Shown piece after piece: positions 20,302 to 49,244 of a stretch of 64,000 nt of DNA. The notes below the pieces were generated by a model, which ran no database searches, was not told the origin of the DNA, and saw nothing but the letters and a program-made list of their open reading frames with translations. Position numbers and translations under genes: made by a program. This DNA is from a virus. The stretch lies in the IMG/VR virus record IMGVR_UViG_3300035181_001974; one strand, given 5' to 3'. How positions within the stretch are numbered: position 1 is the stretch's first letter; each line of letters opens with the position of its first letter.

Positions 20302-20622
20302 TTGCATCGTTGTTTCATAGCTCGTCACCCAGCTGAAGCCCACCTGGAACAAGCTGCCCAAGTGGCTCCGCGTGCTGATACCCATTGGTATGGCCACGTT
20401 GCCGCAGATCGCCGACATGGCCGGCTTGGTACACACCAGATTTTCGTTCACGATGAAAGCGTGTACTACGAAATTAAGGGAAGGTGGTCTGACAAGGCGT
20501 GCTATCAGCTTGCACTGATGCGAATCAAGTTTCCTGAAGTGACTATCGTGGTCATTGACGGTGTCCAGTACCGTCAATTGGGTCTACAGTACCGTGACAA
20601 GGTAAGGTGGGAAGGTAAATGA
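20302..20622 (+). CDS. small PD-(D/E)xK-like ORF upstream of dnaE (possible homing-endonuclease relic)
   Basis: IFVHDESVYYEIKGRWSDK...TIVVIDG resembles the nuclease cores of HEG at 22907 ([12 protein letters not shown]...VVVASG) and the relic at 29868 (VYVEVKGWWRDD). Confidence 0.35.
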   Translation: MHRCFIARHPAEAHLEQAAQVAPRADTHWYGHVAADRRHGRLGTHQIFVHDESVYYEIKGRWSDKACYQLALMRIKFPEVTIVVIDGVQYRQLGLQYRDKVRWEGK

Positions 20623-20676: not shown

Positions 20677-22362
20677 TTGTCGGTTTGCACAACCACACGG
20701 GCTTCTCGTAATGCGCCCTTCGATGGTTTGGGCTATCCCGATGAACACTTCAAGTGGTGCATGGAGAACGGGCTCGATGGCCATGCCATCACCGAGCACG
20801 GGAACATGAACTCCTATGCCCACGCTCAACTGTGGGTCGAGGAGTGGGCCAAGGCCAATAAGGGAAAGTCGTTCAAGTACATTCCCGGCGTCGAGGCGTA
20901 CTACCATCCCGACCTGGAGCAATGGAAGAAGGACGTCGAACTCGCAGAGCAGGCGAAGGGAGACAGGAGGGTTGCGGCCAAGCTTGCTAAGGAGCAGGAA
21001 AAGCTGCAGACCAAGATCATCGCCACCATCGATGAAAATGATGAGACTGAGGACATTGAGATGTCCAACGCCTTGACTGTCGAAAACGAGGAAGAGTCCA
21101 AATCGACCAAACACTTCAATCCCGTCAACCGACGGCATCACCTAGTCATTCTGCCCAAGAACCAGAAGGGCCTGTTGGCGATCTTCGCAGCATGTTCGAA
21201 GGGATTCTTGAAGGGCTTCTACAAGTTCCCGCGCATTGACCATGCTGTCCTCAAAGAGGCAGCCAAAGGCGGCGACATCATCGTCAGCAGCGCTTGTATC
21301 GGCGGCATGCCGGCGTACTCCATATTCCAGGAAATCCAACAGTACAAGTTTGACGAGCTCGACGCACGGTTGCTCAGTGACCCTGTGCTGCTCGAGAAAT
21401 GCGTTGTCGCGGTGGGCAATACCTACCAGCACATGGTCGATGCAGTCGGCGAAGGAAACTACTTCCTCGAGCTGCAGTTCAATCGCCTACCGGCGCAGAA
21501 CCTCGTCAACCGCGCGATCCTGGAGTTCGCTCGTCGCAATGGGCTCAACAAGCAGCTGATCGTCACCGGCGATGCTCACTACTATAATCCCGATCGTTGG
21601 AAGGACCGTGAGCTCTACAAGCGCCTGGGTTGGATGAACTACCAGGAGATCAATCCTGACGCGATTCCGAAGTCGAAGGATGAGCTGAAGTGTGAGCTCT
21701 ATCCGAAGAACGCCCAACAGATGTGGGATGAGTACCAGCGCTCCAAGGAAGGCACCGACTGGTATGACGATGAAGTCGTCTGTGACGCCATTGAGCGGAC
21801 TCACGATATCGCACACAGTGTCATCGGGGAGATTCCACCCGATCGTTCGCCCAAGTTTCCGACGAGGTTGTTGGTGCCCGAAGGCACGACCTCGTTCAAT
21901 CACCTCATCTCGCTTTGTAAGGTGGGCATGGTGAAGCGTGGTCTTCAAGACAAGCCAGAGTATATCGCGCGCCTCAAGGAGGAACTCGGCGTCATTAAGG
22001 TGATGAAAAACTCTGACTACTTCATTTCCTACCAGAAGATCATGGAGCTGGCACGCAATGTGTGCCTTACCGGCCCAGCCCGCGGTTGTTTCGTTCCTGA
22101 GACGCGGGTTCTAATGGCTGACGGCATGCATGCTCCCATTGGCACCATCAAGGTGGGCGACGTTATCAAGGATGCATATGGTGTTGATCAGATGGTGACT
22201 CAGATCTTCAGGTATCAGGTTGATGAGGAGCTGCTAGAACTCGAGTTTGATGACGGTAAGAAGATCAGGTGCACCAAGGAGCATAAGTTTCTGACGAAGA
22301 ATCGTGGGTGGATTGAAGCACAACACTTGACTGAAGATGATGACCTAATCGAGGTTGAATGA
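20677..22362 (+). CDS. dnaE: DnaE N-terminal extein (PHP + palm start) fused to N-intein 1; true start at 20618 in another frame (frameshift)
   Basis: frame A 20618..20710 encodes MTQQGKEDAKGSSVRVPRRFVGLHNHTGFS* (PHP motif), frame of ORF continues NAPFDGLGYPDEH...; N-intein 1 = 22087..22359 (CFVPETRVLMADG...LIEVE). Confidence 0.8.
   Translation: MSVCTTTRASRNAPFDGLGYPDEHFKWCMENGLDGHAITEHGNMNSYAHAQLWVEEWAKANKGKSFKYIPGVEAYYHPDLEQWKKDVELAEQAKGDRRVAAKLAKEQEKLQTKIIATIDENDETEDIEMSNALTVENEEESKSTKHFNPVNRRHHLVILPKNQKGLLAIFAACSKGFLKGFYKFPRIDHAVLKEAAKGGDIIVSSACIGGMPAYSIFQEIQQYKFDELDARLLSDPVLLEKCVVAVGNTYQHMVDAVGEGNYFLELQFNRLPAQNLVNRAILEFARRNGLNKQLIVTGDAHYYNPDRWKDRELYKRLGWMNYQEINPDAIPKSKDELKCELYPKNAQQMWDEYQRSKEGTDWYDDEVVCDAIERTHDIAHSVIGEIPPDRSPKFPTRLLVPEGTTSFNHLISLCKVGMVKRGLQDKPEYIARLKEELGVIKVMKNSDYFISYQKIMELARNVCLTGPARGCFVPETRVLMADGMHAPIGTIKVGDVIKDAYGVDQMVTQIFRYQVDEELLELEFDDGKKIRCTKEHKFLTKNRGWIEAQHLTEDDDLIEVE
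22087..22359 (+). other. N-intein 1 (91 aa), followed by stop
   Basis: C1 after GPARG; block A CFVPETRVLMADG..GTIKVGDVI; block B TKEHKFLT. Confidence 0.8.
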
Positions 22363-22446
22363 AACTCAACTAAGTTTACCTGATCCTCGTCAAATGTCTA
22401 TTAGACAGGGATCTCAAGGCTTACATGAAGAGAGCGAACGCATATC

Positions 22447-22944
22447 ATGAAGCTCAGAAGTAAGACTGTCGTACCGTATAAGGGTGAGGTCGTAGACCTG
22501 TGTGTGGAAAACAGCCACACTTACAACGTGGAAGGTATTGCAGTCCACAATTCGGGCGGTGGCTCTCTGGTCGCCTACGTCCTATACATCACCGACTTGG
22601 ACCCGTTGTTCTGGGACCTGCCTTTCGCGCGATTCCTTAGCGTTCACAGGTGTCTGTCGCCAGACACAAAGGTATTGATGTCAGATGGTTCGTCGTCCGC
22701 GCTTCGAGACGTGAAAGTCGGTGACAGCGTTGTCTCACAGGATGGCTCACACCGTAAAGTTACGTTCACCATGACCACAAAACATGAGAAGACGTACCGC
22801 GTGAAGGTGAATGGTACTACGTTCACGTGTTCTGAAAATCATGTGTGGTTGACAGTGGGTCCTGATGGACAACCTGTGAAGAAGTATACATCTGAGCTGT
22901 CGACGAGTGACGAGCTGTACACGTACCACTATGAGCATCATTGA
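22447..22944 (+). CDS. dnaE: C-intein 1 (22447..22551) + extein 2 (22552..22650) + N-intein 2 (22651..22941)
   Basis: [35 protein letters not shown]|[33 protein letters not shown]|[13 protein letters not shown]... Confidence 0.8.
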
Positions 22945-23872
22945 GAAACAGTGTAAACACTGTGGTATTATGTTTCAGTTCAACTATGAGCCCAACTGCA
23001 AGGGTTCTGGTAGTAGGCTCCATCGCCCGTACTGCACTGATGAGTGTGCCGTCGCTCACAGGAAGCTGATGTCACACGCTCCCATGCCCTCGAGGCTTGT
23101 GAAGACGTGCGTCGAGTACGGCGATGAGTTCTACGTTCCAAAGTGTCACAACAACAGAAAACTATGTTCGAATGCGTGCAGGCACAAGTACACTGCGAAA
23201 GCGCTGACAAAGAATGAGCTCCGTACACTGACATGTGTACAGTGTCTAGGCACTTTCTCAACGAAGAACGTCAATCGCAGGTTCTGTTCACCCAAATGTT
23301 TCGCTGCATCGAGGTTTGACCGCCACACGTTGGTATGCGAAGTTTGTAGCGAACCGATCGTCACCAAGAAGAGCTACGTGCCGCGGTTCTGTTCCAAACG
23401 GTGCACCCGCGAGGCACAGTCACGTGATATGGTTGCTTCACATGTGAACGGACGCTCGTGTTTTCGTTCCGACATCCTAAACAGCCCGTACTTCAAGAGC
23501 TCGTTCGAAGCCGACTACTACAGATATTGCTTGCACCTCGGTAAGATGCCATTCTATGAACATAGGTCTTTCCATGTTGTCATCGATGGCAAAGAGAAGT
23601 GTTACACTCCAGACTTTTGGTTCAGTGATGAGGACCGATACGTGGAGTTGAAAGGTGTGCGAGAAGGCAAATCGCGTTTCTCAAAGTTGCTTAACTCAAA
23701 CGCACGTTCACGGGAAGTCGTTGTGGCGTCTGGTCAGCGCATCGACGTCGTGTACATGAATGACTTCTATGGTGAACTTCGTCGACAAGGTTTGTACCAT
23801 ACGATTGCCAATCTAGAGCACAGGGACTATGCAGGAACCCAACATCTCATCAGCAAGCACGGCCAAAATTGA
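22907..23872 (+). CDS. free-standing homing endonuclease (multi CxxC zinc-ribbon + PD-(D/E)xK core) between halves of intein 2
   Basis: six or more CxxC pairs; C-terminal [17 protein letters not shown] = PD..(D/E)xK motif; nested between N- and C-intein 2. Confidence 0.65.
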
Positions 23873-24566
23873 AGCTATCGAGGTTGTCGATGAAAGTGTA
23901 GAACTCATCGACATCGAGGTCGAAGGCCAGCATACGTTTTGGGTGTCCAACAACGATAGCGATTGGGTGCTGACACATAACTCTGGTGCTCCTGATATCG
24001 ACTGCGTCCACGAGGACCATCTTGTCGTCATGACAGACGGCACTCATAAGCGAGCTGTTGACATCATTGTCGGCGACGTCGTCCTGGGAGGCGATGGAAT
24101 GCCACACGCAGTAACTGCGACCTATGCTAGAAATTTGCGGCCATTCGAGGACGCTGTCTGGGTCAGAGTTAGGGCCAATGATGGTACGTTGGGCCACATT
24201 TTGGTGGTGCCCGGTCACAAATTTGTCAGAGCTGACGGCGTCATCGTGTACTGCCGCGACCTTAAGGTCGGAGATGAATTGATGGCATCATGCGGCAGCG
24301 TTGAGGTCGTATCGATCGAGCACGGTGGTTGGGGCTCTTCCAACGCTAGATACGTCGACCTGACTGTTGAAGACGATCACAGATTCCACGTGGTACCGTT
24401 CAATACGTCCATTCTAAGTGGAGGTGATCCATCACATGACGTCGGTTATTGCATGGGCGTCATTCCTGGCACGTTCCTTGCGTGTGGCGAAGGAGACAAT
24501 TTTTGCAGCGATTGGTGCGCGTCTAAGAGAAGAACAGACCACAGCGAGCGCAACTATGAAATTTGA
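23829..24566 (+). CDS. dnaE: C-intein 2 (to 23981) + extein 3 SGAPDID (23982..24002) + N-part of intein 3 (24003..24563)
   Basis: ...VELIDIEVEGQHTFWVSNNDSDWVLTHN|SGAPDID|CVHEDHLVVMTDGTHKRAVDIIVGDVV...PGHKFV...RYVDLTVEDDHRFHVV then a non-extein-like tail. Confidence 0.7.
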   Translation: MQEPNISSASTAKIEAIEVVDESVELIDIEVEGQHTFWVSNNDSDWVLTHNSGAPDIDCVHEDHLVVMTDGTHKRAVDIIVGDVVLGGDGMPHAVTATYARNLRPFEDAVWVRVRANDGTLGHILVVPGHKFVRADGVIVYCRDLKVGDELMASCGSVEVVSIEHGGWGSSNARYVDLTVEDDHRFHVVPFNTSILSGGDPSHDVGYCMGVIPGTFLACGEGDNFCSDWCASKRRTDHSERNYEI

Positions 24567-24868
24567 GCTGGAGTTGGGACCGTGTCCGAGCAACGTTGAT
24601 GCGGTGCAGCTTACAGACAACGGCGATTCTGCCGAGCAGATGATGTGATAGTGTCTGGCCTGGAAAGAATAGCTCAGACGAGAGCTGCAGAAAATCCTGA
24701 ATTTCAAGATTGTCAGGTCAAACTGCGCGTTAAAGGGTTTGAGCACGATTTGGCCCCCATACTATGGGGCTACGTCGTGCGATGACGCCGACGCCGACGA
24801 GCGCACAATTGACGCCATCTTCTGGCTCAAAGAAAATGCGTCCTCAAAGTTTGACGATGACATTAGCG

Positions 24869-26602
24869 TCACGCTGTGACGTCTAAGACGTAGCGAGAGT
24901 TGCTACAGCCATAGATGCGATAAACGCCGGCAGCCTCCGCTACCTGTTTTTCTGTTAGACCTTGCTTCTTGTTGGCTCGGTACTTGAACCTGTCGTAACG
25001 ATGCATGAAGTCAGTCCACCAGAAGCGAGCGACTGTGGTACCGTTGAACTTCATGCCTGAGGTGGCATAACCGTTTCCTCCCAAGCGATTGTCTGAGTAA
25101 GACATCAACCTCGCTGCATTGTTTTCTCTTGCTATAGCTTTTGCCTTTGATAGCAATTTTGACACCCCGCCTCGTACATGTGTGCCAAGCTTGAAGCACA
25201 GGCGAGCGATCTCAATCGTCGTTCTGTCTGCCCCATTTCGTGCCCACCTAAGGCTGCAGGCGCCTACGATTTCGCCCGATGAGGTTACCAATCGCACGGC
25301 AAATTGGGCCCTCACGTGACCGTCGAGGTGGCACTGATTGATGAATTCTCGAACTTCTTCGGGCTCGCAGCGTTCTGCTTTCAACTTACGCGCATCGACT
25401 TTGGTAGAAAACCCAAGGCGATGGCGCAACATGCTTTCGATTATCGGTCGTTTGTCGCGCCACTCATCCTCAAATAACGTGAAAAGCGATACGCCGGCTT
25501 TGAGGGACAGCAATCTCTTCTTTTCCGCGTGATCGTGCTCAAATCTATTGGCGGCCTCGCTGTGCCAGTATAGGCCATTGCACTCGATGGCAAACATGCG
25601 CGATGGAATGAGTATGTCGAGCTCCATTCCGCCGAGCGTCTTACGATCGCTAAGGACTGCGTCAGGTGCCAGCGTCTGGATAAATGCGTAGACGTCCTGT
25701 TGCCACCTGCTCGTTTTGTCTGACCAAGGCGGAAAGCAGGTGGGACACTTGGCCTCGTTGTTGAACACTGCGCCAACGCAACGCTCAAATATTGTTGAAC
25801 ATATCGTGCATTCGATGCGCGCTTTGGTGACAGTATCGACATATTCGTCAATGAGTTTAAGCTGCTTTTCTTTGAGGCGTTTTTGTACCTCGTCGTGCGT
25901 CAGCAACTTTGCCTTGCGCATTTTTTCAAGCGTTACGTCGCTAAAGAATCGTCCTTTCAACGAAGCGCTGATCTTCTTACTGCGAGATTCAATGATGCTA
26001 GACGTATCCTTTGTCAGGCCAAGTGACCAGCCGCTGTGCGTTGCATAATACCTCCGCAGGCTGTCGCTGATTTTTGCCGCCTTTTGTTTAAGGCTTTCGT
26101 TGTTTTCCTTTGTCTTGTCGGAGTTGTGGTGACCGTGTTCCTTGTAGTGAGCTCGCATGTTTGCAGCACTGGCTGACATGCGTTCGTCATTGTCTTTCGT
26201 CAGGCCTTTGTTCCATGACGAGGTGCCCTTGGACGCGTATGCGTGTTTTCGGCTACAACGTGGACACCGTTCGGGGTATCCTTTTTCTTGATCGATGAAC
26301 CTGACCCAGTCGCAACAATCGATGCACGTCTTCCTGCACCCTGGGTACCTTGTTTCATACACAACGACGGGTGATTTTTGGTGCGTTTTTGTGCAGTGCA
26401 ATGTCAACTTACGCCCGCTGTCATATGACGCCTCACACCACGGACACGCGTAAGTTGACACCTGTTTGGGAGGCCTGGCGTCTTCTCGCCTGTGTCGTGC
26501 CTCGTGGATCTTCAATGCTCGTAGCGTTTCGTGGTTTCGACCACAACGAGCGCATGTAAATTCAACTGTAGTTGAGTTAGGATTCATGTGATGGTCGTTC
26601 AT
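24869..26602 (-). CDS. homing endonuclease: C2H2 zinc fingers + NUMOD3 + Vsr-like (DUF559/EDxHD-type) nuclease + C-terminal GNAT-like domain; inserted antisense inside intein 3
   Basis: FTCARCGRNHETLRALKIHEARH and YACPWCEASY..HCTKTH fingers; NUMOD3-like GHHNSDKTKENNESLKQKAAKIS; nuclease core ELDILIPSRMFAIECNGLYWHSE...D; C-terminal RGGVSKLL...RFWWTD shared with 27288..29087. Confidence 0.7.
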   Translation of the reverse strand: MNDHHMNPNSTTVEFTCARCGRNHETLRALKIHEARHRREDARPPKQVSTYACPWCEASYDSGRKLTLHCTKTHQKSPVVVYETRYPGCRKTCIDCCDWVRFIDQEKGYPERCPRCSRKHAYASKGTSSWNKGLTKDNDERMSASAANMRAHYKEHGHHNSDKTKENNESLKQKAAKISDSLRRYYATHSGWSLGLTKDTSSIIESRSKKISASLKGRFFSDVTLEKMRKAKLLTHDEVQKRLKEKQLKLIDEYVDTVTKARIECTICSTIFERCVGAVFNNEAKCPTCFPPWSDKTSRWQQDVYAFIQTLAPDAVLSDRKTLGGMELDILIPSRMFAIECNGLYWHSEAANRFEHDHAEKKRLLSLKAGVSLFTLFEDEWRDKRPIIESMLRHRLGFSTKVDARKLKAERCEPEEVREFINQCHLDGHVRAQFAVRLVTSSGEIVGACSLRWARNGADRTTIEIARLCFKLGTHVRGGVSKLLSKAKAIARENNAARLMSYSDNRLGGNGYATSGMKFNGTTVARFWWTDFMHRYDRFKYRANKKQGLTEKQVAEAAGVYRIYGCSNSRYVLDVTA

Positions 26603-27445
26603 TCATTTTTGGCGTCCAACAAGAGCGTCGTTGTTCACAACACCGATCTTGCCAGGCGAGATGAGGTTCTTGATGAACTTCGAAACTTTTTTGGGTGGGA
26701 AAACGTCGTTCCCATCAGCAATTATAACTGTTTCAAACTAAAAACGCTTGTAAAGGATATCGGCAAGTTCTACGGCATCCCATTCGAGGAGACCAACGCT
26801 GCCACGCGGACCGTCGAGGACGAGGTCCGTAAGGCGACGATGAAGGAAGGCGACGACAAGAATCTGTTCGTCTTGACCTACGATGAGGCCATGGCCTTCC
26901 ACTGCAGGGCTCCTAAGGGCCCGGAGTCGAAGTCCATCTGCCAGGGCTGTAGCCCAGAGTGTAAGCAGCCGGTCAGCCCGTCGTTTCGCGGCTTCATTGA
27001 GAAGTACCCGGTCGTCGCCGAGTCGATCAAGATCCTCTTCAAGCAGAATCGTAGTCTCGGTCGTCACGCGGGTGGTGTGCTGATTGCAGACGATTTGCCC
27101 AACAAGATGCCTTTGGTGACGTCCAAAGGCAAGGCCGGCGTCCGCGAGCCACAGTCACCTTGGGTCGAGGGCGTAAATTATAAACACCTTGAGAAGATCG
27201 GAGAGTTCATCAAGTACGACCTCCTAGGTCTAGAAACGATGCGGCTCATCGAGCGCGCCATCGAGCTCATCATCAAAAAGGAACGACATGAAAGAGGGTG
27301 GTTTGAGATCCAACTCGACGATGGAACGACACGAGGCGTCTACGGCGACCAACGAATCGTCACCAGCAACAGGGGCACCATCCTTGCGAGGGAGCTCGGG
27401 CCCGGCGATGACATCGTGTCCTTCGAGGTGCCCACAGTGCAATGA
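26588..27445 (+). CDS. dnaE: very short C-part of intein 3 (at most 22 codons, ..HSFLASNKSVVVHN) + extein 4 (DnaE palm/fingers segment)
   Basis: VVVHN|TDLARRDEVLDELRNFFGWENVVPISNY..KTLVKDIGKFYGIPFEE aligns to E. coli [48 protein letters not shown]; later RHAGGVLIA, KYDLLGLETMRLIERAIELI; in-frame stop 3 codons upstream of the first listed start. Confidence 0.75.
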   Translation: MMVVHSFLASNKSVVVHNTDLARRDEVLDELRNFFGWENVVPISNYNCFKLKTLVKDIGKFYGIPFEETNAATRTVEDEVRKATMKEGDDKNLFVLTYDEAMAFHCRAPKGPESKSICQGCSPECKQPVSPSFRGFIEKYPVVAESIKILFKQNRSLGRHAGGVLIADDLPNKMPLVTSKGKAGVREPQSPWVEGVNYKHLEKIGEFIKYDLLGLETMRLIERAIELIIKKERHERGWFEIQLDDGTTRGVYGDQRIVTSNRGTILARELGPGDDIVSFEVPTVQ

Positions 27446-29087
27446 TCCATTGCGAAAAGCTAGCCTAAATTCGCTCCGCGCACATCTCCTTAAAAAGCAC
27501 GGGCTCAATGCGGAGGCTGCGTACCTTCTTTTTCGAGAGCACCCTGGACCGTGCGTTCAGTGTTCAGGGCCGGTCAAGTTCATGACCTTTCAAACGGGAT
27601 ATGAACGTCTCTGTGGAGTTTGTAGCAAGAAGAACTCTCAAGTAAGAGGTGCGCTTAGCCGGAAATCAAAATCATTGCCTGCATGGAACAAGGGGCTGTC
27701 AGAAACAACGTCTGAATCGGTTCGAAGGGCCGCACAAGGTTGTCGTGATTTCATCAAAAAACACGGGCACTGGAGAACAGGACAAACTAAAGAAAATAAT
27801 GAATCTATCACAAGAGCTGCGCATAACATCTCTCGAGCATTGACTGAAAAATGGCAAGTAGAAAAACACTGGACGCAGCACGGTCAGACGTCAGAAACTG
27901 ACGATAGGATCAAACGGCGATCAGAACGGATCGGCGAAGGCGTTCGCTTGAATCATTGGTCTCGGAACGCTAATTCTGAAGATATCAAACGTTCGATCAT
28001 CGAGACTAGAAAACGCCTTATCGAGAACGGCACTAACTCTCCTTTTCGGTTGTCTCTCGAAGAGGTCGAACGGCGAGTTGATGCACTGCGGTCGAGGTGG
28101 AACATCGAAAAATTTGAGTTTGCTGGATACTCAACACCGGTGCATGTGACATGCGTCAGTTGTAACGTACCTGATATTGTTCCCTTTAACGTCCTTTACA
28201 AGGGAAAGGTGTGTTCAACGTGCTACCCGGCTAATTTCTCTCGCTGGCATCGTGAGGTGTTCGATTTCTTCGTCAAGCTCGATTCGAACGCCATCGCCAA
28301 CGACAGACAGTCAATCGCGCCTTATGAGCTGGACATCGTGTCAGGTAACGGAAGGATTGCCATCGAGTGCAACGGTGTCTATTGGCACAGTGAGGCGACC
28401 GGTACTCCACCATCGTATCACCAAGACAAGTCGACTCGCGCTCTTGAGCGTGGTGTGTCGTTGCTACATATCTTCGACGATGAATGGCACCATGATGTAA
28501 AGAAAAACATCATCAAAAGCATGATCAGGGTAAAGCTTGGTCTTGCTACTCGCGTGATGGCACGAAAGCTACATCTTCGCAGCGGTCGTCCAGCCATCAC
28601 CGCTCAGTTCATGGCGAACAATCACCTCGATGGAAACACTCCTTCGTCGCATTCGTTCTGGCTAGAGGACATTGCTGGAAACATTATTTGTGCATTGACA
28701 TTGCGAAAACCGCACCAGCAGACTAAGTGGGGATCTAAGACAATTGAATTGGCGCGGGTTTCAACGGCCCGCGATACCATCGTCGTTGGAGGCATGTCGC
28801 GGTTGATCAACGCTGCCAGGGATTGGTCACGTGAGCATGGTTACCAAAAAATGATCACATACCGTGACATGAGGTTGGGTGGCACTGGCCGGGCGTATGA
28901 ACTATCTGGTTTTAGATTTGATCACATGACGCAGCCTAGGTTTTGGTGGACGGACGGACAAAATCGTATCGATAGATTTGCTGTCAGGGCGATTCCGGGG
29001 ATCGCATCACAAGAAGAGATGGCGATGGAACACAGGCTTTTTAAGATCTTTGGTTGCTCCAACGCGGTGTACGTTATGGACCTGTGA
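27411..29087 (+). CDS. homing endonuclease (paralog of 24869..26602) inserted directly in the dnaE extein; ORF track start 27288 is probably an overlap artefact
   Basis: Zn-finger/NUMOD3-like N-terminus, Vsr-like core ELDIVSGNGRIAIECNGVYWHSE, C-terminal GGMSRLI...RFWWTD...FGCSNAVYVMDL domain. Confidence 0.65.
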   Translation, partial: TSCPSRCPQCNDPLRKASLNSLRAHLLKKHGLNAEAAYLLFREHPGPCVQCSGPVKFMTFQTGYERLCGVCSKKNSQVRGALSRKSKSLPAWNKGLSETTSESVRRAAQGCRDFIKKHGHWRTGQTKENNESITRAAHNISRALTEKWQVEKHWTQHGQTSETDDRIKRRSERIGEGVRLNHWSRNANSEDIKRSIIETRKRLIENGTNSPFRLSLEEVERRVDALRSRWNIEKFEFAGYSTPVHVTCVSCNVPDIVPFNVLYKGKVCSTCYPANFSRWHREVFDFFVKLDSNAIANDRQSIAPYELDIVSGNGRIAIECNGVYWHSEATGTPPSYHQDKSTRALERGVSLLHIFDDEWHHDVKKNIIKSMIRVKLGLATRVMARKLHLRSGRPAITAQFMANNHLDGNTPSSHSFWLEDIAGNIICALTLRKPHQQTKWGSKTIELARVSTARDTIVVGGMSRLINAARDWSREHGYQKMITYRDMRLGGTGRAYELSGFRFDHMTQPRFWWTDGQNRIDRFAVRAIPGIASQEEMAMEHRLFKIFGCSNAVYVMDL

Positions 29088-29105
29088 AAGTACCTTTACA
29101 AAGAC

Positions 29106-29582
29106 ATGGCAAAAGTCGTTGCTAACGTTGACGCACATACAAATGCGGTATCATTCAATGACATCAAGACCTGGTTCGAGCAGCACATGCACCCGGCCGT
29201 CATTGATTTCACCGATCCCAAACCTTACGAGGTCTACGAGAAAGGCAAGTGGGCAGGCATCTTCCAGTGCGTCGACCAGGACACGGCAGTGCTGATGGGC
29301 GATGACTCGTACAAGTTGATCAAGGACGTCCATGTCGGTGACGAGGTGACGGTCTTCGATGAAGTCAAGCAGCAGTTCACCACATCAGTCGTCGACGTCG
29401 TTTACGACCAAGGACCCAAGGAGTGCATCGAGCTCGTGTTCGACGACGGCAAGAAGCTTGTCTGCACCGCTGATCATCCCATCTTGACGAAGAATCGCGG
29501 GTGGGTTGAGGCACAGCACCTAACCGAAGACGACGAGTTGATTGGGTCTAGCAGTGGTTACGAAGCTCGTGGATTGACGTGA
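29106..29582 (+). CDS. dnaE: extein 5 (29106..29267) + N-intein 4 (29268..29579)
   Basis: AVIDFTDPKPYEVYEKGKWAGIFQ|CVDQDTAVLMGDDSYKLIKDVHVGDEV...; N-intein 4 tail (LVFDDGKKLVCTADHPILTKNRGWVEAQHLTEDDELI) is paralogous to the N-intein 1 tail. Confidence 0.75.
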   Translation: MAKVVANVDAHTNAVSFNDIKTWFEQHMHPAVIDFTDPKPYEVYEKGKWAGIFQCVDQDTAVLMGDDSYKLIKDVHVGDEVTVFDEVKQQFTTSVVDVVYDQGPKECIELVFDDGKKLVCTADHPILTKNRGWVEAQHLTEDDELIGSSSGYEARGLT

Positions 29583-29666
29583 GGCGGGCGTTTTGGTCGC
29601 AGGTTTCGCCGCGACCGTGGCCATGTCGCCTTACAGAGACGCAACAGGCCCACGACTCCGCAACAT

Positions 29667-30056
29667 GTGATTGTACGGACGCGCTCCGCTCATCGTAGCG
29701 CCCCTTTGTACTTTCTGCACTCAGCGGGCAACGGGAACGGAAAGAATGGCGTCGTCGACCTGTATGACAACTGGCGTCATTGCATGGACGAGGGCTTCAG
29801 CGAGGAGGAGATCAGGATCCAGCTCACAAGAGAGGCGTACATGATCTTCCATCGTCAATGACCGACGTTGGAGCTCTTTAAGCGGGTGTACGTGGAAGTC
29901 AAGGGCTGGTGGCGTGATGATGCTAGGGAGAAGTTTGACGCATTCGTAACGTTGCATCCGACGCTCAAGTGTGCACTTGTCAGTGGATATGACCTACAGT
30001 TGCTAGAAAAGAAGGAGACGACGCTTGAAGCTTGTGTCATCACGCAGCGTGGGTAA
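29667..30056 (+). pseudogene. decayed homing-endonuclease relic (PD-(D/E)xK core) between halves of intein 4, with in-frame TGA at 29859..29861
   Basis: ...MIFHRQ*PTLELFKRVYVEVKGWWRDDAREKFDAF resembles [15 protein letters not shown] of HEG 22907; far too short for a functional HE. Confidence 0.5.
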
Positions 30057-30624
30057 GCGCCACGTCTACGACATCGAGGTGCGAAATCATCATAATTTCG
30101 TCGCTAACGACGTCGTTGTTCACAATTGCACGGGCCAGGGCGCTCAGCGACTCTTTGTCAAAGGCAAGCCCAAGAGCATCATCGACATCGCGACGCTGAC
30201 CAGCATCTATCGCCCGGGTCCCTTGGCCGCCAAAGTCGATCGACTGTACTTGGAGGCGAAGAATGACGGCAAGGAGTTGGAGTGGGGCGATCACCGCGTC
30301 AACGACATCCTGAAGAAGACATACTCGTGTTTGACGGGTGACACACATATCCTTACTGAGCAAGGTGAGGTTCCCATTAGACAAATCGTTGAACAAGGAA
30401 TGGTGGGAACTAAGCTTCCGTCATACAATGAAATGACGAAGACCGTCGAGATGGACGAAGTTGTCGCTGTCGCCTCAAACGGCGTACGTGACATCATCGA
30501 GGTTGAGCTGGAGGGTGGAGAAACTTTGTCTTTGACTGAAGATCACCTTGTCATGACGCCTCGTGGTTGGGTGCAAGCAGGTGAACTGACGTCTGAAGAC
30601 GAGATTTTGGGAATGAAGTACTGA
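30025..30624 (+). CDS. dnaE: C-intein 4 (30025..30126) + extein 6 (30127..30327) + N-intein 5 (30328..30621)
   Basis: MKLVSSRSVGKRHVYDIEVRNHHNFVANDVVVHN|CTGQG..IATLTSIYRPGPLAAKVDRLY...KKTYS|CLTGDTHILTEQGEVP...; IYRPGPL matches DnaE ALFRPGPL. Confidence 0.8.
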   Translation: MKLVSSRSVGKRHVYDIEVRNHHNFVANDVVVHNCTGQGAQRLFVKGKPKSIIDIATLTSIYRPGPLAAKVDRLYLEAKNDGKELEWGDHRVNDILKKTYSCLTGDTHILTEQGEVPIRQIVEQGMVGTKLPSYNEMTKTVEMDEVVAVASNGVRDIIEVELEGGETLSLTEDHLVMTPRGWVQAGELTSEDEILGMKY

Positions 30625-30630
30625 AACCAG

Positions 30631-30830
30631 GCTACTTCGTCGTGCCATCACTCAACCTCATCATCGAGTACGACGGCGACTATTGGCACAGTAACCCAGC
30701 GAAGCATGAACTAACACCTGCGATGAAGAAGCAATTTAGGCTTGATCAATTATGGACGCTTGCCACAAGAACTTGAGGCTTCACGGTGTACCGCGTCTGG
30801 GAGTCTGATGCCTTGAACTATCACCTCAAA
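30631..30830 (+). pseudogene. Vsr-like (DUF559/EDxHD-type) nuclease-core relic with in-frame stop, between halves of intein 5
   Basis: YFVVPSLNLIIEYDGDYWHSNPAKHE...RLDQLWTLATRT*GFTVYRVWESD matches only the catalytic core of HEGs 24869/27411/31990; no DNA-binding region. Confidence 0.5.
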
Positions 30831-30847
30831 TTGAGGACAATTTAGAC

Positions 30848-31093
30848 ATGAAGATTGATGATTTTGAAGAGGAGTTGCTTACGTCGTTCAAGAACTTTAT
30901 CAACACGATGAAGTCACATACGGCATTTGGAAAGCGTGATGATCTCACGTATGCCGACTGGTTCGACACATTTCGAGCTTATGAAGAGGTCGGAAATGAT
31001 ATGGAGCTCGAATACCATGGTCAACGTGTTTTGAGTGTTGATGGACCAGTGTGCCAACTCTGCGCATCATCATTGAACATGAAAGAAAAATGA
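30848..31093 (+). CDS. hypothetical small protein inside intein 5 gap
   Basis: 81-aa ORF. Confidence 0.35.
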   Translation: MKIDDFEEELLTSFKNFINTMKSHTAFGKRDDLTYADWFDTFRAYEEVGNDMELEYHGQRVLSVDGPVCQLCASSLNMKEK

Positions 31094-31094
31094 T

Positions 31095-31412
31095 ATGAGC
31101 GCAGATCTTTACACTAGCGAGATCGATGACGATGTTTATGGATCTCTAACGCTAGAGATGAACGTTCATGGGAATTTGCGAATCATTGCATATGATCCTG
31201 GGACTAGAGATTTGGTAGGTTGCTGTCAGTTTCCACCCTCGCATGAGGGTTTCAACGAAGCCCAACGATTGATCAACGCTTTGCAAGAATGGATGCGTCA
31301 TGTGGGGGAAAATCTCAACCCTTGCCGAGTCGTTCTAGGCAGTGATGCTTTGTCGCGCTCAATGTCATTACACATTGTTTGTCAGACTCATCGTGAAACG
31401 GAGCGTAAGTGA
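31095..31412 (+). CDS. hypothetical small protein inside intein 5 gap
   Basis: 105-aa ORF, start 1 nt after previous stop. Confidence 0.35.
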   Translation: MSADLYTSEIDDDVYGSLTLEMNVHGNLRIIAYDPGTRDLVGCCQFPPSHEGFNEAQRLINALQEWMRHVGENLNPCRVVLGSDALSRSMSLHIVCQTHRETERK

Positions 31413-32110
31413 TGCCTGACGTAGTTCCCGTCAAGATCCGTGCGATCAAGCGTGTTCCTGCACAGCCTGTGTACGACATCCAGGTCAAGAAGAACAACAA
31501 CTTCTTCGCAAATGGCCTTCTCGTGCATAACTGCATAATTTTTCAGGAACAGGTGATGGAACTCGCCGAGAAGGCTGCCGGCTTCCCGAAGGACAAGTGT
31601 GACGAGGTCCGTCGCGCAATCATGAAGCGCAGCATCTCGGGCGGTGAGGCGGCAAAGAAGGCAGCCCAAGAGACCCGTGACGGGTTCGTCAAGGGTTGCA
31701 TCGCCAACGGTTATACCGAGAAGGTGGCCAACAACCTCTACGACAAGATTCTGTACTTCGCGGGCTACGGCTTCAATAAAAGTTTGTACTTTTCGGAACC
31801 AGTAAATACCTTTTTTTCAGACGGCACGTTCAAAGAGACAAAGCAGCTTCAACACATCGAACCCGGCGACCTGGTCATGTCTCGTGATGAGAATTCAGGT
31901 AAAAACATCCTCGTCCCTGTTGTTGCAAAACACGACCACGGTGAGCTAGACTTGGTAGAAGTGGAGTTGGTGACCGGAGAGAAGGTAAAGTGCACGTGGG
32001 ATCACAAGTTCAGGACGAAGGAGACAAACGAGATGTTGCCCCTGTGGATGATTGCCGAACGGGGCCTCAGCATCGTTGTGACCGATGTAGCAGGCTCTTC
32101 GTCTACCTGA
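31409..32110 (+). CDS. dnaE: C-intein 5 (31409..31531) + extein 7 (31532..31780) + N-intein 6 (31781..32107, Ser1)
   Basis: ...PVYDIQVKKNNNFFANGLLVHN|CIIFQEQVMELAEK...KILYFAGYGFNK|SLYFSEPVNTFFSDGTFKE...TWDHKF; extein matches E. coli GIILYQEQVMQIAQ...VEKFAGYGFNKS. Confidence 0.8.
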   Translation: MMPDVVPVKIRAIKRVPAQPVYDIQVKKNNNFFANGLLVHNCIIFQEQVMELAEKAAGFPKDKCDEVRRAIMKRSISGGEAAKKAAQETRDGFVKGCIANGYTEKVANNLYDKILYFAGYGFNKSLYFSEPVNTFFSDGTFKETKQLQHIEPGDLVMSRDENSGKNILVPVVAKHDHGELDLVEVELVTGEKVKCTWDHKFRTKETNEMLPLWMIAERGLSIVVTDVAGSSST

Positions 32111-33039
32111 AGGCCTACGAAAAACACCAAGCTAGGTGCCAAGGATTCATACTCGGTGACAGTGAGAGTGTCACATGCCAAGTCTGTGGCTTCACGGGTA
32201 AGGCACTGGCAAAGCACTTGTCGGGGACGCATGGTATGAGCAAAGAAGAATACCTGAAAGCGTACCCGACTGCCGCAATCACATCGAAAGTCTCGACAGC
32301 GCGTTTCAAGCATCGTGGGCAGAATTTCGCCTGGCTCAAACGAGCGAAGGCACGCGGTGATGATTTGACTGCCTACAAGGAAAAGATGGGCCGTGCGGTC
32401 AGTGAGGCCATCACGAGCAATCCGGGCGAGAGGAAACGTCGCTCTGAACTAATGGGAGAACTTAATCGACGACCTGAAGCCCGTAAACGTTCATCAGACG
32501 TTGCAAGACTAACGTCAACCCGGCCTGAGATACTCAAGGCACGTGCTGAGCGCCTGGCCCGTTGGCGTGAGTTGAACCCCGATGAGTTCTACGAAAAGTG
32601 CACAAAAGCTGCACATGCTATTTGGCATAGCATTCCGGAATTAGCGTTGTTTGATTTGTTGAAAAACGTTGAAGGTTATGATTTTGTTCATAATCAGGTC
32701 GTCAAGTCAGTTGCTTTTCCAAACAAATCTAAAAGAAAGCAAGTTGACATTGCCGATCGATCAAGACACATTTATGTTGAATTTGATGGAATCATCCATT
32801 TTAATGCACGTATTAAAGGCGAGGATAATTTTGAACGAGTGAAGTGCATGGATGCAATGCTTGATGATTACATCACTAAACATGATTGGACACTCATTCG
32901 AATTTCTTACGATCAGTTCTCATACAAGGATGGCGGTCGCTTCGAACCTGATTGCTTGAAAAAGCTTTTTGAGATCCTGAAAGATCCTCGACCTGGCGTT
33001 CATCGGATAGGAAAAGCGTATGAAAAGACCGCCGTTTGA
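31990..33039 (+). CDS. free-standing homing endonuclease (Zn finger + basic NUMOD-like linker + Vsr-like core) between halves of intein 6
   Basis: CDRCSRL..HQARCQ and CQVCGF..H finger; core HIYVEFDGIIHFNARIKGEDN...LIRISYDQF (DUF559/Vsr pattern). Confidence 0.65.
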   Translation: MHVGSQVQDEGDKRDVAPVDDCRTGPQHRCDRCSRLFVYLKAYEKHQARCQGFILGDSESVTCQVCGFTGKALAKHLSGTHGMSKEEYLKAYPTAAITSKVSTARFKHRGQNFAWLKRAKARGDDLTAYKEKMGRAVSEAITSNPGERKRRSELMGELNRRPEARKRSSDVARLTSTRPEILKARAERLARWRELNPDEFYEKCTKAAHAIWHSIPELALFDLLKNVEGYDFVHNQVVKSVAFPNKSKRKQVDIADRSRHIYVEFDGIIHFNARIKGEDNFERVKCMDAMLDDYITKHDWTLIRISYDQFSYKDGGRFEPDCLKKLFEILKDPRPGVHRIGKAYEKTAV

Positions 33040-33244
33040 AATCGCACTGAATGACATTGCCCAACGCATGGGTCTGAGTCCGATCGAACTGTTACGGGCC
33101 GCGGCACGTTACCGACGCAAAAGCGAAACGAAGGTTGAACTCCAGCCGACTGACGAGTACATTGAAGAAGAGTATGCTAAAGCAATGCTTGATGAACCGA
33201 ACGCAGGAGCGATCGAAGACCTGTTGAAGGACCTGCTCACATGA
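33020..33244 (+). CDS. hypothetical small protein
   Basis: 74-aa ORF between HEG6 and C-intein 6. Confidence 0.3.
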   Translation: MKRPPFEIALNDIAQRMGLSPIELLRAAARYRRKSETKVELQPTDEYIEEEYAKAMLDEPNAGAIEDLLKDLLT

Positions 33245-34371
33245 GTAACATCAAGTCTATCACACCCGTGGGTCGACACCAGACCTATGACCTCGAAGTC
33301 GATCACCCGGATCACCAGTTCTATCTCGCTAACGGGATACTGACGTCTAACAGCCATGCAGTGGCATACGCCATTGACAGCTTCTGGTGCGCCTGGCTGA
33401 TGACATATCACGAGGAGGAATGGCTGTGTGCCTATCTCGAAAGCATGTCGCACACTCCTGCTCAACGTGCTAAGGCGTTCAGCGAGGTAAAGGCCTTGGG
33501 CTATCAGATCGTCCCGATCGACATCAACCTGGCGGGGCTCGGGTGGACCGCGCTGCCCGGCAAGAAGTTGATGCCGTCGATGACGTCCTGCAAGGGTGTC
33601 GGCGACTCGGCGGTCGAAGAGATCATGGCCAACCGTCCCTACAACACTATCGAGGAGTTGCTGTGGGATGACAACTTCGAGTGGAAACACAGCAAGTTCA
33701 ACAAGAAGGCGATGGAGGCCCTGGTCAAGATCGGTGCCTTCGGCAGTATGGACATCGTGGGCGAAGGCAAGGTCTTCAACAACTATCATCACATGCACGA
33801 GGTCCTCTTCGGTTCTCACGTGGAGACCGTGACCAAGAAGCGCAAGGGCGTCGAGGTCACCGAAGAGGTCGACATCGATCACGGGGCGTTGATCAAGCGA
33901 CACCCGAAGTCTGACCCGCACGAGGGCCTTAAGAACTTCTACCAGTTGGTCAGGGACTACGCTGACATCGAGGACTGGTCGTCTTCTGAACGTGCTCAAA
34001 ATATGGTCGACGTCTTCGGTGCTTTGGACGTCACCGCCATGATTGACATCGAAATCTTGGCTGCCTTGGAGAAGAAGGGCGTCAATAGCATTGACGACCT
34101 GGAGCACGGTGACACGGCGGTCGTCTGGTTTGTCACGGCCCCTGTTGCTGCAAAGAAGGGTGGCAAGCCGGTGACGGGCATCAAGAAGAAGACCCGCAAT
34201 GGCAAGGAATATGTGCAAATCTTTGCGGTTGGACCCACTGGCAAGGCCACGAAGATTTCTGTCTGGGGCGGCAAGGAGCTTCCTGACCCCTTCATCCTGT
34301 GTTGTGCCGAGGTCAAGAGGGACGACTTTGGCGCGTCGACGACGGTCTGGAAGTTGAGGGAAATCACGTAA
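33241..34371 (+). CDS. dnaE: C-intein 6 (33241..33351, ends TSN) + extein 8 = DnaE C-terminal region (fingers end, OB domain)
   Basis: MSNIKSITPVGRHQTYDLEVDHPDHQFYLANGILTSN|SHAVAYAIDSFWCAWLMTYH..; LGYQIVPIDINLAG matches E. coli GLKILPPDINSG; KGVGDSAVEEIMANR matches KGVGEGPIEAIIEAR. Confidence 0.8.
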   Translation: MSNIKSITPVGRHQTYDLEVDHPDHQFYLANGILTSNSHAVAYAIDSFWCAWLMTYHEEEWLCAYLESMSHTPAQRAKAFSEVKALGYQIVPIDINLAGLGWTALPGKKLMPSMTSCKGVGDSAVEEIMANRPYNTIEELLWDDNFEWKHSKFNKKAMEALVKIGAFGSMDIVGEGKVFNNYHHMHEVLFGSHVETVTKKRKGVEVTEEVDIDHGALIKRHPKSDPHEGLKNFYQLVRDYADIEDWSSSERAQNMVDVFGALDVTAMIDIEILAALEKKGVNSIDDLEHGDTAVVWFVTAPVAAKKGGKPVTGIKKKTRNGKEYVQIFAVGPTGKATKISVWGGKELPDPFILCCAEVKRDDFGASTTVWKLREIT

Positions 34372-48529: not shown

Positions 48530-48984
48530 TGACCCACAATAGCGAAGAACTGCGGCCCACCTGGCCTTCGATCTGGATGGCAGTCGCCAAGACGATTGCC
48601 TTGCGTTCTTACGATCCCAGGCTAAAGGTGGGCGCCATCGTCGTCTCATACGACAATACCCAGATGTTGTCGATCGGGTACAACGGCAACTACAAAGGCG
48701 GGCCACACGAGCACGAGTCGAAGGAACCTGGCAAGTCAGGCTTTATTCACGCCGAGGTCAATGCGCTGGTCAAGTGTGACTTCAACTTTCCCAAGAAGAA
48801 ACACCTGTACGTGACTCACAGCCCGTGCAAGGACTGCGCCAAGTTGATCATCAATGCTGAGATTGCCCGAGTTGTTTATGAGATTCCCTACCGCGATCCG
48901 GCAGGGCTAAATCTCCTGCGGTCCGTCGGTATTGAAGTGCTATCGCTAGAGGATGCGATTATCAACTCAAGATTGGCCCGTTGA
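48526..48984 (+). CDS. dCMP deaminase
   Basis: zinc-binding HAEVNAL and PCKDCAKLI motifs; 152 aa. Confidence 0.85.
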   Translation: MMTHNSEELRPTWPSIWMAVAKTIALRSYDPRLKVGAIVVSYDNTQMLSIGYNGNYKGGPHEHESKEPGKSGFIHAEVNALVKCDFNFPKKKHLYVTHSPCKDCAKLIINAEIARVVYEIPYRDPAGLNLLRSVGIEVLSLEDAIINSRLAR

Positions 48985-49244
48985 CTTTTACGTCAAAAGC
49001 ATCAATACGTACATTCAGTACGACAGCGAATATTGGCACGGTCTTGACCGCTCCATCGACGTCATGATGGCATCACAAATCCACGTGACAAAGGAATCTA
49101 TCGCAACTGGCTTTCAGATCGTGCAAAGGATGAGTGGTTTACCGCTCAAAACATGACTCTATCGATAGTTGTACATGGAAGAACGAAAGCCAATCGTGAT
49201 GACCTGCGTCTCAAGCTGGAGAGAATACTTACCGCCAGGGCCCG

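Follow-up and report, generated by a model that had tools for sequence, protein, structure and literature searches.

Apparent remnants of two homing endonuclease gene families between the halves of split inteins 4 and 5 in a fractured phage dnaE gene

A 64,000-nucleotide (nt) stretch of the IMG/VR virus record IMGVR_UViG_3300035181_001974 (termed the window) carries a DnaE-type (Pol III alpha) polymerase gene at positions 20677–34371. The open reading frame (ORF) listing and translation show that this gene is present in several separately translated pieces. Each DnaE piece finishes with an N-intein half or begins with a C-intein half, and nuclease genes are situated between the halves; the locus is a “fractured gene” split by inteins. 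Sequence comparisons show that free-standing homing endonuclease genes (HEGs) of two different families have left decaying remnants in the gaps of inteins 4 and 5, between the N- and C-halves. The region analyzed, 29268–31531, starts with the Cys codon that opens N-intein 4 and ends with the last codon of C-intein 5. Decay in the course of the homing cycle, leaving dead and deleted HEG remnants in the gaps of a fractured dnaE, is in our assessment the highly probable explanation.

The relatives used for comparison (labelled L001–L021) are metagenome or viral contigs, and their coordinates are given as contig:start–end. The window derives from a large phage; relatives are found on contigs of 309–369 kb. 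An earlier note on this DNA, made without database searches, had placed nuclease fragments in the gaps of inteins 4 and 5, and translation, profiles and the relatives confirm their presence and positions. Intact versions, which the note proposed to look for in related phages, were found in L016 (both gaps) and L011 (gap 5). The intact intein-4-gap nuclease is encoded at L016:6001–6867 (288 amino acids, aa), and the intact intein-5-gap nucleases at L016:7461–8201 (246 aa) and L011:6843–7580 (245 aa).

Relic 1 (29886–30056, plus strand) comprises the last 56 codons and the stop codon of a zinc-finger T7-endonuclease-I-like HEG. The E-x-K motif (VEVKG) is still present in it; the S..E helix, YxPDF and the entire N-terminal Cys-rich zinc-finger region are gone. 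A database search gives one close homologue, P0001 (65% identity over the C-terminal part, E-value = 3.9e-15). P0001 is located directly upstream of the C-intein-4 homologue in L005 and has 582 homologues at E ≤ 1e-3, most of which are 200–300 aa in length with the homologous part at the C-terminus. A family hidden Markov model (HMM) built from 127 of these 582 sequences matches the window three times: in the ORF at 22907 (HMM positions 25–101, E-value = 2.5e-12), in relic 1 (positions 77–117 only, E-value = 3.1e-12) and at 20443–20586, a short distance upstream of dnaE. The catalytic residues of T7 endonuclease I are E20, D55, E65 and K67. Only the E-x-K of this set is present in relic 1, where homology begins at position 77 of the 120 HMM positions.

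A domain profile of 21 sequences (termed A6) matches T7 endonuclease I (1M0D) with an E-value of 1.4e-14, the next match being Bax1; the alignment with 1M0D covers 87 profile positions, and the E...PD...ExK residues are aligned. Relic 1 aligns with the 21-sequence profile over 54 columns (hhalign, E-value = 2.4e-19), starting only at the “YVEVKG” strand. It matches the intact L016 gene with a tblastn E-value of 3.5e-17 and displays 73% identity to L015 and 55% to the intact L016/P0004 sequence. Single-sequence searches give weaker signals. Relic 1 alone is below threshold against Pfam Phage_endo_I (14.1 bits, with a cut-off of 29.1 bits); the Pfam matches for both relics and P0001 are all under gathering thresholds, and a tblastn search of relic 1 against phages yields only matches of E~0.1 to cyanophage T7-like endonucleases. 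A match of relic 1 to the endonuclease at 22907, as previously proposed, holds at the level of the family: both are recognized by the same HMM and both match phrog_945, but a direct BLASTP comparison gives an E-value of 0.92 and covers only YVEVKG/YVELKG, so that the link rests on the shared profile. Relic 1 and the 22907 ORF thus belong to one family.

The frame of N-intein 4 is open from 29583 to the TAA at 30054–30056, with a TGA at 29859–29861 as the sole interruption. This had been described as a nuclease ORF of ~130 codons with an in-frame TGA. The TGA is real, but the ORF is a chimera in which only 56 codons (29886–30053) are nuclease-derived. Its upstream half was considered as a possible nuclease N-terminus and rejected, as it has no homology to the family and DNA similarity between the window and L005 begins only at ~29886. 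The upstream sequence corresponds to a pseudogene remnant (29560–29897, plus strand) of a 176-aa gap ORF (ORF176), of which residues 15–126 only are represented. ORF176 of L015 (L015:6861–7391) matches the window with a tblastn E-value of 1.4e-33 in two high-scoring segment pairs of 61–65% identity, one at 29560–29706 and the other, in a different frame, at 29697–29897. The remnant has a TGA (29668–29670) in place of an L015 Trp codon (TGG>TGA), a 1-nt frameshift near 29700, the TGA at 29859–29861 in place of an L015 Leu codon, and a deleted 3′ end. No Pfam or PHROG match was obtained. In the L015 intein-4 gap, ORF176 is followed by the nuclease gene, and blastn shows two collinear blocks: window 29150–29890 corresponds to L015 6456–7231, and window 29887–30329 to L015 8032–8474. 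Thus a single 800-bp deletion relative to L015 fused the ORF176 remnant to the nuclease tail. The TGA at 29859 therefore belongs to the debris of a different gene, and of the premature stops that had been noted in both relics only the one in relic 2 (TGA 30774) interrupts a nuclease sequence.

Relic 2 (30636–30845, plus strand) comprises the last 69 codons and the stop codon of a C2H2-zinc-finger Vsr-like (EDxHD) HEG. It is found within a 73-codon open stretch (30627–30845) that has an in-frame TGA at 30774–30776. Relic 2 corresponds to residues 178–246 of the intact L016 gene (64% identity, tblastn E-value = 6.7e-28), with identities by tblastn of 59% to L011 and 57% to L006; both intact intein-5-gap nucleases and relic 2 end in ...NYPLKLRTI. 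Relic 2 retains the motifs IEYDGDYWH and LD as well as GFTVYRVWE, and is without both zinc fingers; the intact relative gene has two C2H2 zinc fingers (Pfam E-value = 3.1e-10). A profile of the relic-2 family (termed A7), built without relic 2, aligns with it at columns 51–113 of 118 (hhalign, E-value = 4.7e-21). Compared with PDB, profile A7 matches 3R3P (I-Bth0305I) with an E-value of 5.6e-6, the DUF559-like 3HRL with 0.03 and Vsr with 0.64. The active site of I-Bth0305I consists of E170, D196, N208, H213 and D222, i.e. EDxHD (Taylor et al. 2011, PMC3239194; PDB 3R3P). In relic 2 the equivalents of Glu170 and of the essential Asp196 are missing: the relic starts after the E position, and a Tyr/junction sequence occupies the position of the relatives' invariant Asp (EFDF vs GYFV). 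The x, His and second Asp are kept (EYDGDYWH, RLD), that is, three of the five signature positions.

Relic 2 also matches mycobacteriophage endonucleases in an alignment that continues across the stop codon (tblastn E-value = 4e-7), as well as phrog_559 (1.9e-7) and phrog_3339 (6.2e-6). It shares PHROG families and the profile region with the intact nucleases of 577 aa (24869) and 599 aa (27288). Its proposed match to the endonucleases at 24869, 27411 and 31990 is supported by BLASTP for the 24869 ORF (E-value = 1e-4) and the 27288 ORF (0.007), but nothing significant is obtained by BLASTP with the 31990 ORF, where the link rests on the shared profile. Relic 2 gives only 13.4 bits against Pfam MTES_1575 (cut-off 38.2), and phmmer finds no match to it among PDB sequences; the family profile is needed. 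Both relics are thus significantly similar to nuclease families when profiles are used, and both are truncated and without DNA-binding modules, as the earlier note had maintained; in addition, catalytic residues are missing. The note's “two different nuclease folds” are two families, one resembling T7 endonuclease I and the other Vsr/EDxHD. The topology of Vsr is a diverged form of that of type II restriction enzymes (PMC3239194), and so both families share a restriction-endonuclease-like fold.

The relatives display the same sites in several states, as determined from a module map of eleven loci with translations. At the intein-4 site the HEG is intact in L016, and is of full length with one nonsense codon in L015 (TGG>TAG). 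It is partial in L005 (3′ part, 95–122 aa), in the window (56 codons) and in L017 (~30 codons). L006 has a Vsr-like HEG in this gap instead, and the site is empty in L007, L009, L011 and L021. At the intein-5 site the HEG is intact in L016 and L011, carries one nonsense codon in L009, and is represented in the window by the 69-codon relic with its TGA; the other seven loci have an empty site. The HEG 3′ end is retained in all five of the five deletion-type relics seen, a small sample.

The retained tails overlap translation signals. The Shine-Dalgarno box of the C-intein-4 ORF (AAGGAG, 30012–30017), a 7-nt spacer and the TTG start at 30025 are positioned at 30012–30027 (plus strand), inside the coding sequence of the nuclease tail, and the relic-1 frame ends at 30056. 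A purine-rich box, a 7-nt spacer and a TTG AAG CT start are common to the window, L015, L016, L005 and L017 (5/5 loci). In gap 5, the ATG of the small ORF81 is preceded by a GAGGA box that lies in the Vsr-like tail and is conserved. The HEG tail therefore encodes the Shine-Dalgarno box and start of the downstream gene, and this is the likely reason why 3′ ends persist. The downstream gene served by the tail would be the C-intein-extein piece in gap 4 and the cargo gene ORF81 (module A) in gap 5.

Members of the two HEG families are found in different gaps. The C2H2 Vsr-like family (core identity ~57%–60%) is present in the intein-4 gap of L006 (5246–5992) and in the intein-5 gap of L016 (7461–8201), L011, L009 and the window. 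T7-endonuclease-I-like HEGs are present in the intein-1 gap (L006, L011), the intein-2 gap (window, 22907) and the intein-4 gap (L016, L015). This distribution shows that HEG families move between intein sites. The L009 counterparts of the intact window nuclease genes at 24869 and 27288 have each been split into a pair of ORFs (L009:2352–3695, minus strand, and L009:5003–6558); thus different relatives lost different HEGs.

The stop codons and similarities could be thought to arise from assembly or sequencing artefacts or from chance. No supporting point was found for this, and its probability is close to nil: four independently assembled contigs from four other samples (L001–L004) are 99.99%–100% identical to the window across the region, thus the stops are not sequencing errors, and the matches to syntenic relatives have E-values of 1e-17 to 1e-33. 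We regard it as already refuted. An explanation in which the in-frame TGA codons are read through or recoded, the gaps then encoding full small nucleases, draws on the fact that all internal stops are TGA, including those interrupting the gap 4 frame (29859) and the gap 5 frame (30774). Of the 51 stop-to-stop open frames with 200 codons or more in the window (six frames), however, 37 end in TGA, DnaE pieces and intact HEGs among them, and TGA is thus an ordinary stop codon here. The TGAs align with Leu, Trp, and Arg or Leu in relatives, i.e. with no single residue, and the read-through products would still be without catalytic residues and DNA-binding domains. Recoding is accordingly hardly credible and is effectively refuted. 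A megablast search of 29000–32000 against a phage collection gave no match, and a repeat search found nothing relevant.

Under decay in the homing cycle, the intein and HEG would have become fixed in the lineage, no empty targets would be left, and selection on the nuclease would lapse. The intein halves would have to stay active while the HEG decays, because the polymerase depends on them. In gap 4, the 800-bp deletion would have removed the 3′ end of the neighbouring ORF together with the first ~230 codons of the 288-aa HEG. In gap 5, a ~545-bp deletion would have removed the first ~177 codons of the 246-aa HEG, a nonsense mutation would have hit the remainder, and further deletions of ~170 bp and ~560 bp would have trimmed or removed small cargo genes. 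Neither relic is expected to be a nuclease, since in each of them two or more catalytic residues are missing and no DNA-binding module is left.

Some observations weigh against this explanation. The number of sites detected by a promoter/terminator scan did not exceed that in shuffled sequence, which leaves the Shine-Dalgarno box as the sole documented expression signal. The ratio of nonsynonymous to synonymous substitution rates (dN/dS) between the relics and relatives is low (0.1–0.3), with synonymous sites near saturation, so that the ratio mostly records the time before inactivation and does not itself show relaxed selection. The 62-codon relic-1 frame that runs from TTG 29868 through 30056 has no internal stop, and L005, L015 and L017 independently show such 3′ tails. 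A small functional relic peptide is therefore conceivable, e.g. a 62-aa T7-endonuclease-I-like fragment acting as a regulator or dominant-negative partner of the 22907 paralogue (T7 endonuclease I is a domain-swapped dimer). The open frame, the recurrent tails and a dN/dS of ~0.3 versus L015 would suit such a retained protein. We nevertheless consider it unlikely. Neither of the relic ORF starts (TTG 29868 and GTG 30642) is preceded by a Shine-Dalgarno box, the recurring part is exactly that which overlaps the downstream start signals, relic lengths vary widely (~30, 56 and 95 codons), the frame of relic 2 is interrupted by a stop, and dN/dS is uninformative with saturated synonymous sites. 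It may also be supposed that the fragments were never intact in this lineage and arrived truncated, via partial gene conversion or illegitimate recombination during homing. That HEG families move, the Vsr-like family occupying the gap of intein 4 in L006 but that of intein 5 elsewhere, and that gap contents are mosaic, would agree with such an origin. It is very unlikely, however, as gap 5 (N-intein, HEG tail, A, B/C, C-intein) is collinear with relatives on both sides, the gap 4 order (ORF176, then HEG tail) is likewise collinear with relatives, and every difference is explained by simple deletion. Decay of once intact HEGs, as set out above, remains the explanation that we prefer.

The inteins that flank the relics are probably still functional. 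The window dnaE has five canonical split inteins and one degenerate split. N-intein 4 (29268–29582, plus strand) starts with Cys1 at 29268, has CTADH as block B, ends with the stop TGA 29580–29582, and is in frame with the upstream DnaE piece (ORF 29106–29582). C-intein 4 (30025–30126, plus strand) starts with TTG at 30025 in a different frame and ends in VVVHN, followed by the +1 Cys at 30127. The two halves show 64% and 88% identity, respectively, to their L016 counterparts. The DnaE extein segment between inteins 4 and 5 (30127–30327, plus strand, 67 codons) has 87% identity to L016 and is continuous with its flanks in L007. N-intein 5 (30328–30624, plus strand) starts with Cys1 at 30328, has LTEDH as block B and a stop at 30622–30624, and its tail is shorter in the window than in relatives. 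C-intein 5 (31412–31531, plus strand; 92.5% identity to L016) ends in LLVHN with the +1 Cys at 31532.

L007 encodes an uninterrupted, intein-free DnaE of 1270 aa and supplies continuous sequence at every insertion site (...GIFQ|LTSQGAQ... at the intein-4 site and ...KTNS|CIIFQEQ... at the intein-5 site). All splicing motifs of inteins 4 and 5 are intact: TxxH is present, and the C-halves end in HN followed by Cys (30121–30129 and 31526–31534). The N- and C-halves are in frame with the flanking DnaE pieces on the same strand, and each C-half has a separate Shine-Dalgarno box and start codon. The possibility of a contiguous intein enclosing the nuclease was ruled out, as there are stops at 29580 and 30622 and the C-halves are in other frames. 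From the intact motifs and the presumed need for the polymerase, inteins 4 and 5 probably still trans-splice. Elsewhere in the gene (23829–24566), inteins 2 and 3 are parted by a six-residue extein (…THNS|GAPDID|CVHEDH…), thus the middle polymerase “piece” consists almost wholly of intein halves.

Two small ORFs follow relic 2 in the intein-5 gap. ORF81 (“module A”; 30848–31093, plus strand, 81 aa) has 15 homologues of 74%–100% identity and is found in the same gap in L011 and L009; it is without a C-terminal zinc-ribbon module (CxxC...CxxC, ~60 aa) present in most of the 92–142-aa homologues. ORF105 (“module B”; 31095–31412, plus strand, 105 aa) has 22 homologues and ends in a shortened version of this C-terminal module (C module), in which an internal deletion of ~30 codons took out the CxxC...CxxC ribbon; residues 1–99 show 69% identity to L011:8001–8408. 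Module B homologues are also found outside dnaE, among small-ORF arrays in other phage contigs. The two ORFs had been regarded as unrelated filler, which does not hold: conserved cargo genes of the same kind are located in the intein-5 gap of L011 and L009, and the window has shortened copies of them. The gap order is HEG, A, B-C, 159-aa ORF (ORF159) and C-intein in L011; HEG, A-C, ORF159 and C-intein in L009; and HEG, a 69-aa remnant of ORF159 and C-intein in L016. In the window ORF159 is deleted, and blastn shows three deletions relative to L011, of ~545, ~170 and ~560 nt. ORF81 and ORF105 give nothing significant by tblastn against phages, no family match in Pfam or PHROGs, and no Foldseek match at E ≤ 0.001 against PDB and viral libraries; their AlphaFold models are of low to moderate confidence (pLDDT 56.5 and 67.2).

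HEG-related sequences are also found outside the two gaps. A third T7-endonuclease-I-like relic is present at 20431–20619 (ORF 20302–20622), directly upstream of the dnaE start. Only its last 63 codons are homologous to an intact gene of 263 aa in the same position in L015 (3362–4153), with 48% identity (E-value = 1.6e-17; HMM E-value = 3.2e-6), and here too the 3′ tail is retained. At 48953–49156, a 67-aa ORF (…VDFYVKSINTYIQYDSEYWHG…) that follows a deaminase-like ORF matches the Vsr/EDxHD core (tblastn E-value ~1e-4 to 1e-3) and is probably another HEG fragment, outside dnaE. In another viral contig, L008 (4375–7575), an unrelated helicase-like gene is fractured by a split intein whose C-half is 53% identical to C-intein 4, and the gap has a 294-aa ORF with a LAGLIDADG-like motif. 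On the 1.4-kb contig L005, a bacterial PpiD/SurA-like ORF (L005:1–588, minus strand) adjoins P0001/C-intein 4; this flank may represent a chimeric assembly or a different genomic context, and was not used.

The dnaE gene displays two further breaks. The one between 27275–27445 and 29106–29150 flanks the 599-aa nuclease gene (27288–29087) and has no canonical intein. On its N side, similarity is limited to the second half of an N-intein, without a Cys1 block and with GDQR for TxxH, and its C side has ~13 residues (MAKVVANVDAHTN) and no HN block. The same arrangement is found in L009 and is absent in L006, L007, L011, L015 and L016. By analogy with NrdA of Aeromonas phage Aeh1, the polymerase may stay in two chains at this break. 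At 20700–20720, dnaE is interrupted just after the PHP motif ...HNHTGFS by a 7-nt insertion with a TAA that shifts the frame, and the downstream ORF restarts at TTG 20677, overlapping the upstream ORF. A 12-nt insertion with an in-frame stop is present at this site in L011 (~2440) and L015 (~4250), and the site is uninterrupted in L006, L007 and L016. The interruption could be a recoding site, a scar, or a polymorphism that confers resistance to the upstream HEG.

Earlier publications already cover the arrangement, the Vsr-like family and the eventual loss of HEGs, and decay itself is expected by specialists. A literature search, of incomplete coverage, found no paper on this multi-intein phage DnaE or on T7-endonuclease-I-like HEGs. 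The locus adds documented decay intermediates, a T7-endonuclease-I-like family in the HEG position, and non-nuclease cargo in the gaps. The locus and its relatives form a natural series of empty site, intact HEG, single nonsense codon, deletion relic and near-complete loss. This series fills the path predicted in PMC2677866, which had one HEG-less locus as evidence, and suggests a constraint on decay, in that the downstream polymerase piece has both its ribosome-binding site and its start codon in the HEG tail. The zinc-finger T7-endonuclease-I-like proteins may represent an undescribed family of free-standing HEGs that partner split inteins. Dead HEGs may keep their 3′ tails because the piece of the host gene that follows has come to use them for translation initiation, in which case complete loss of the invader from a fractured gene would be impossible. 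The intein gaps may represent cargo bays in which ORF176, modules A/B/C and ORF159 hitchhike with the mobile unit. That all three of these proposals hold together is tentative, and we rate it somewhat below an even chance. Of use for applications are several naturally split inteins for which the empty-site sequences are known, and intact candidate nucleases of two families whose target sites are readable from the intein-free allele.

Fractured genes were described from metagenomes, with DnaE among eight enzyme types (Dassa, London, Stoddard, Schueler-Furman & Pietrokovski 2009, PMC2677866). In that study the HEG 3′ end overlaps the downstream start, HEG loss is step III of the model, one HEG-less locus (gp41-7) was seen, and the HEG types are only GIY-YIG and Vsr-like (PMC2677866). 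The present locus is alike in its DnaE host, in-frame halves, single strand and phage origin, as well as in the HEG between the halves, the 3′ overlap with a downstream start and the Vsr-like family. It differs in that one gene has five canonical split inteins and one degenerate split, in showing intermediate stages of decay (a nonsense codon alone, then a deletion relic) and not simply presence or absence, in its T7-endonuclease-I-like HEG family and in the small non-nuclease cargo ORFs in the gaps. Intact free-standing HEGs are not present in gaps 4 and 5 of the window, which have tails of 56 and 69 codons, in contrast to L016, L011 and L006. The window thus represents a post-HEG stage of a fractured gene.

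I-Bth0305I, the best match (3R3P) of the relic-2 family, is similarly bipartite, with an N-terminal DNA-binding part and a C-terminal nuclease. The relatives, however, carry two C2H2 fingers and not NUMOD/HTH, and the window copy has three of the five signature positions and a stop. T7 endonuclease I (gp3, PF05367, 1M0D/1FZR/2PFJ) shares with the relic-1 family the catalytic E...PD...ExK and the ExKGxW..D.R.K motif. The T7 enzyme is a structure-specific junction resolvase without a zinc-finger region, whereas the relic-1 family adds ~180 aa of Cys-rich N-terminal sequence and is found at homing-type positions; relic 1 of the window keeps the ExK half only.

In Aeromonas phage Aeh1, insertion of the free-standing HEG mobE divides nrdA in two (Crona et al. 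2011, PMC3045599). That case is alike in that a phage gene of replication or nucleotide metabolism is broken by a HEG and a functional product is still required. It differs in that Aeh1 has no splicing, whereas inteins 4 and 5 of the window retain all their splicing motifs; only the separate 27445/29106 break resembles it. The homing cycle, said to have been set out by Goddard and Burt in 1999, reportedly runs through invasion, fixation, degeneration and loss, and degenerate endonuclease domains are known in VMA1 and other inteins. The present locus agrees with this cycle in that the same site is found empty, with an active-looking HEG, with a point-mutated HEG and with a deleted HEG among close relatives. 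It differs in that the HEG is free-standing between split halves, not nested in a contiguous intein or intron, and in that the 3′ end of the HEG is tied to the expression of the downstream host-gene piece.

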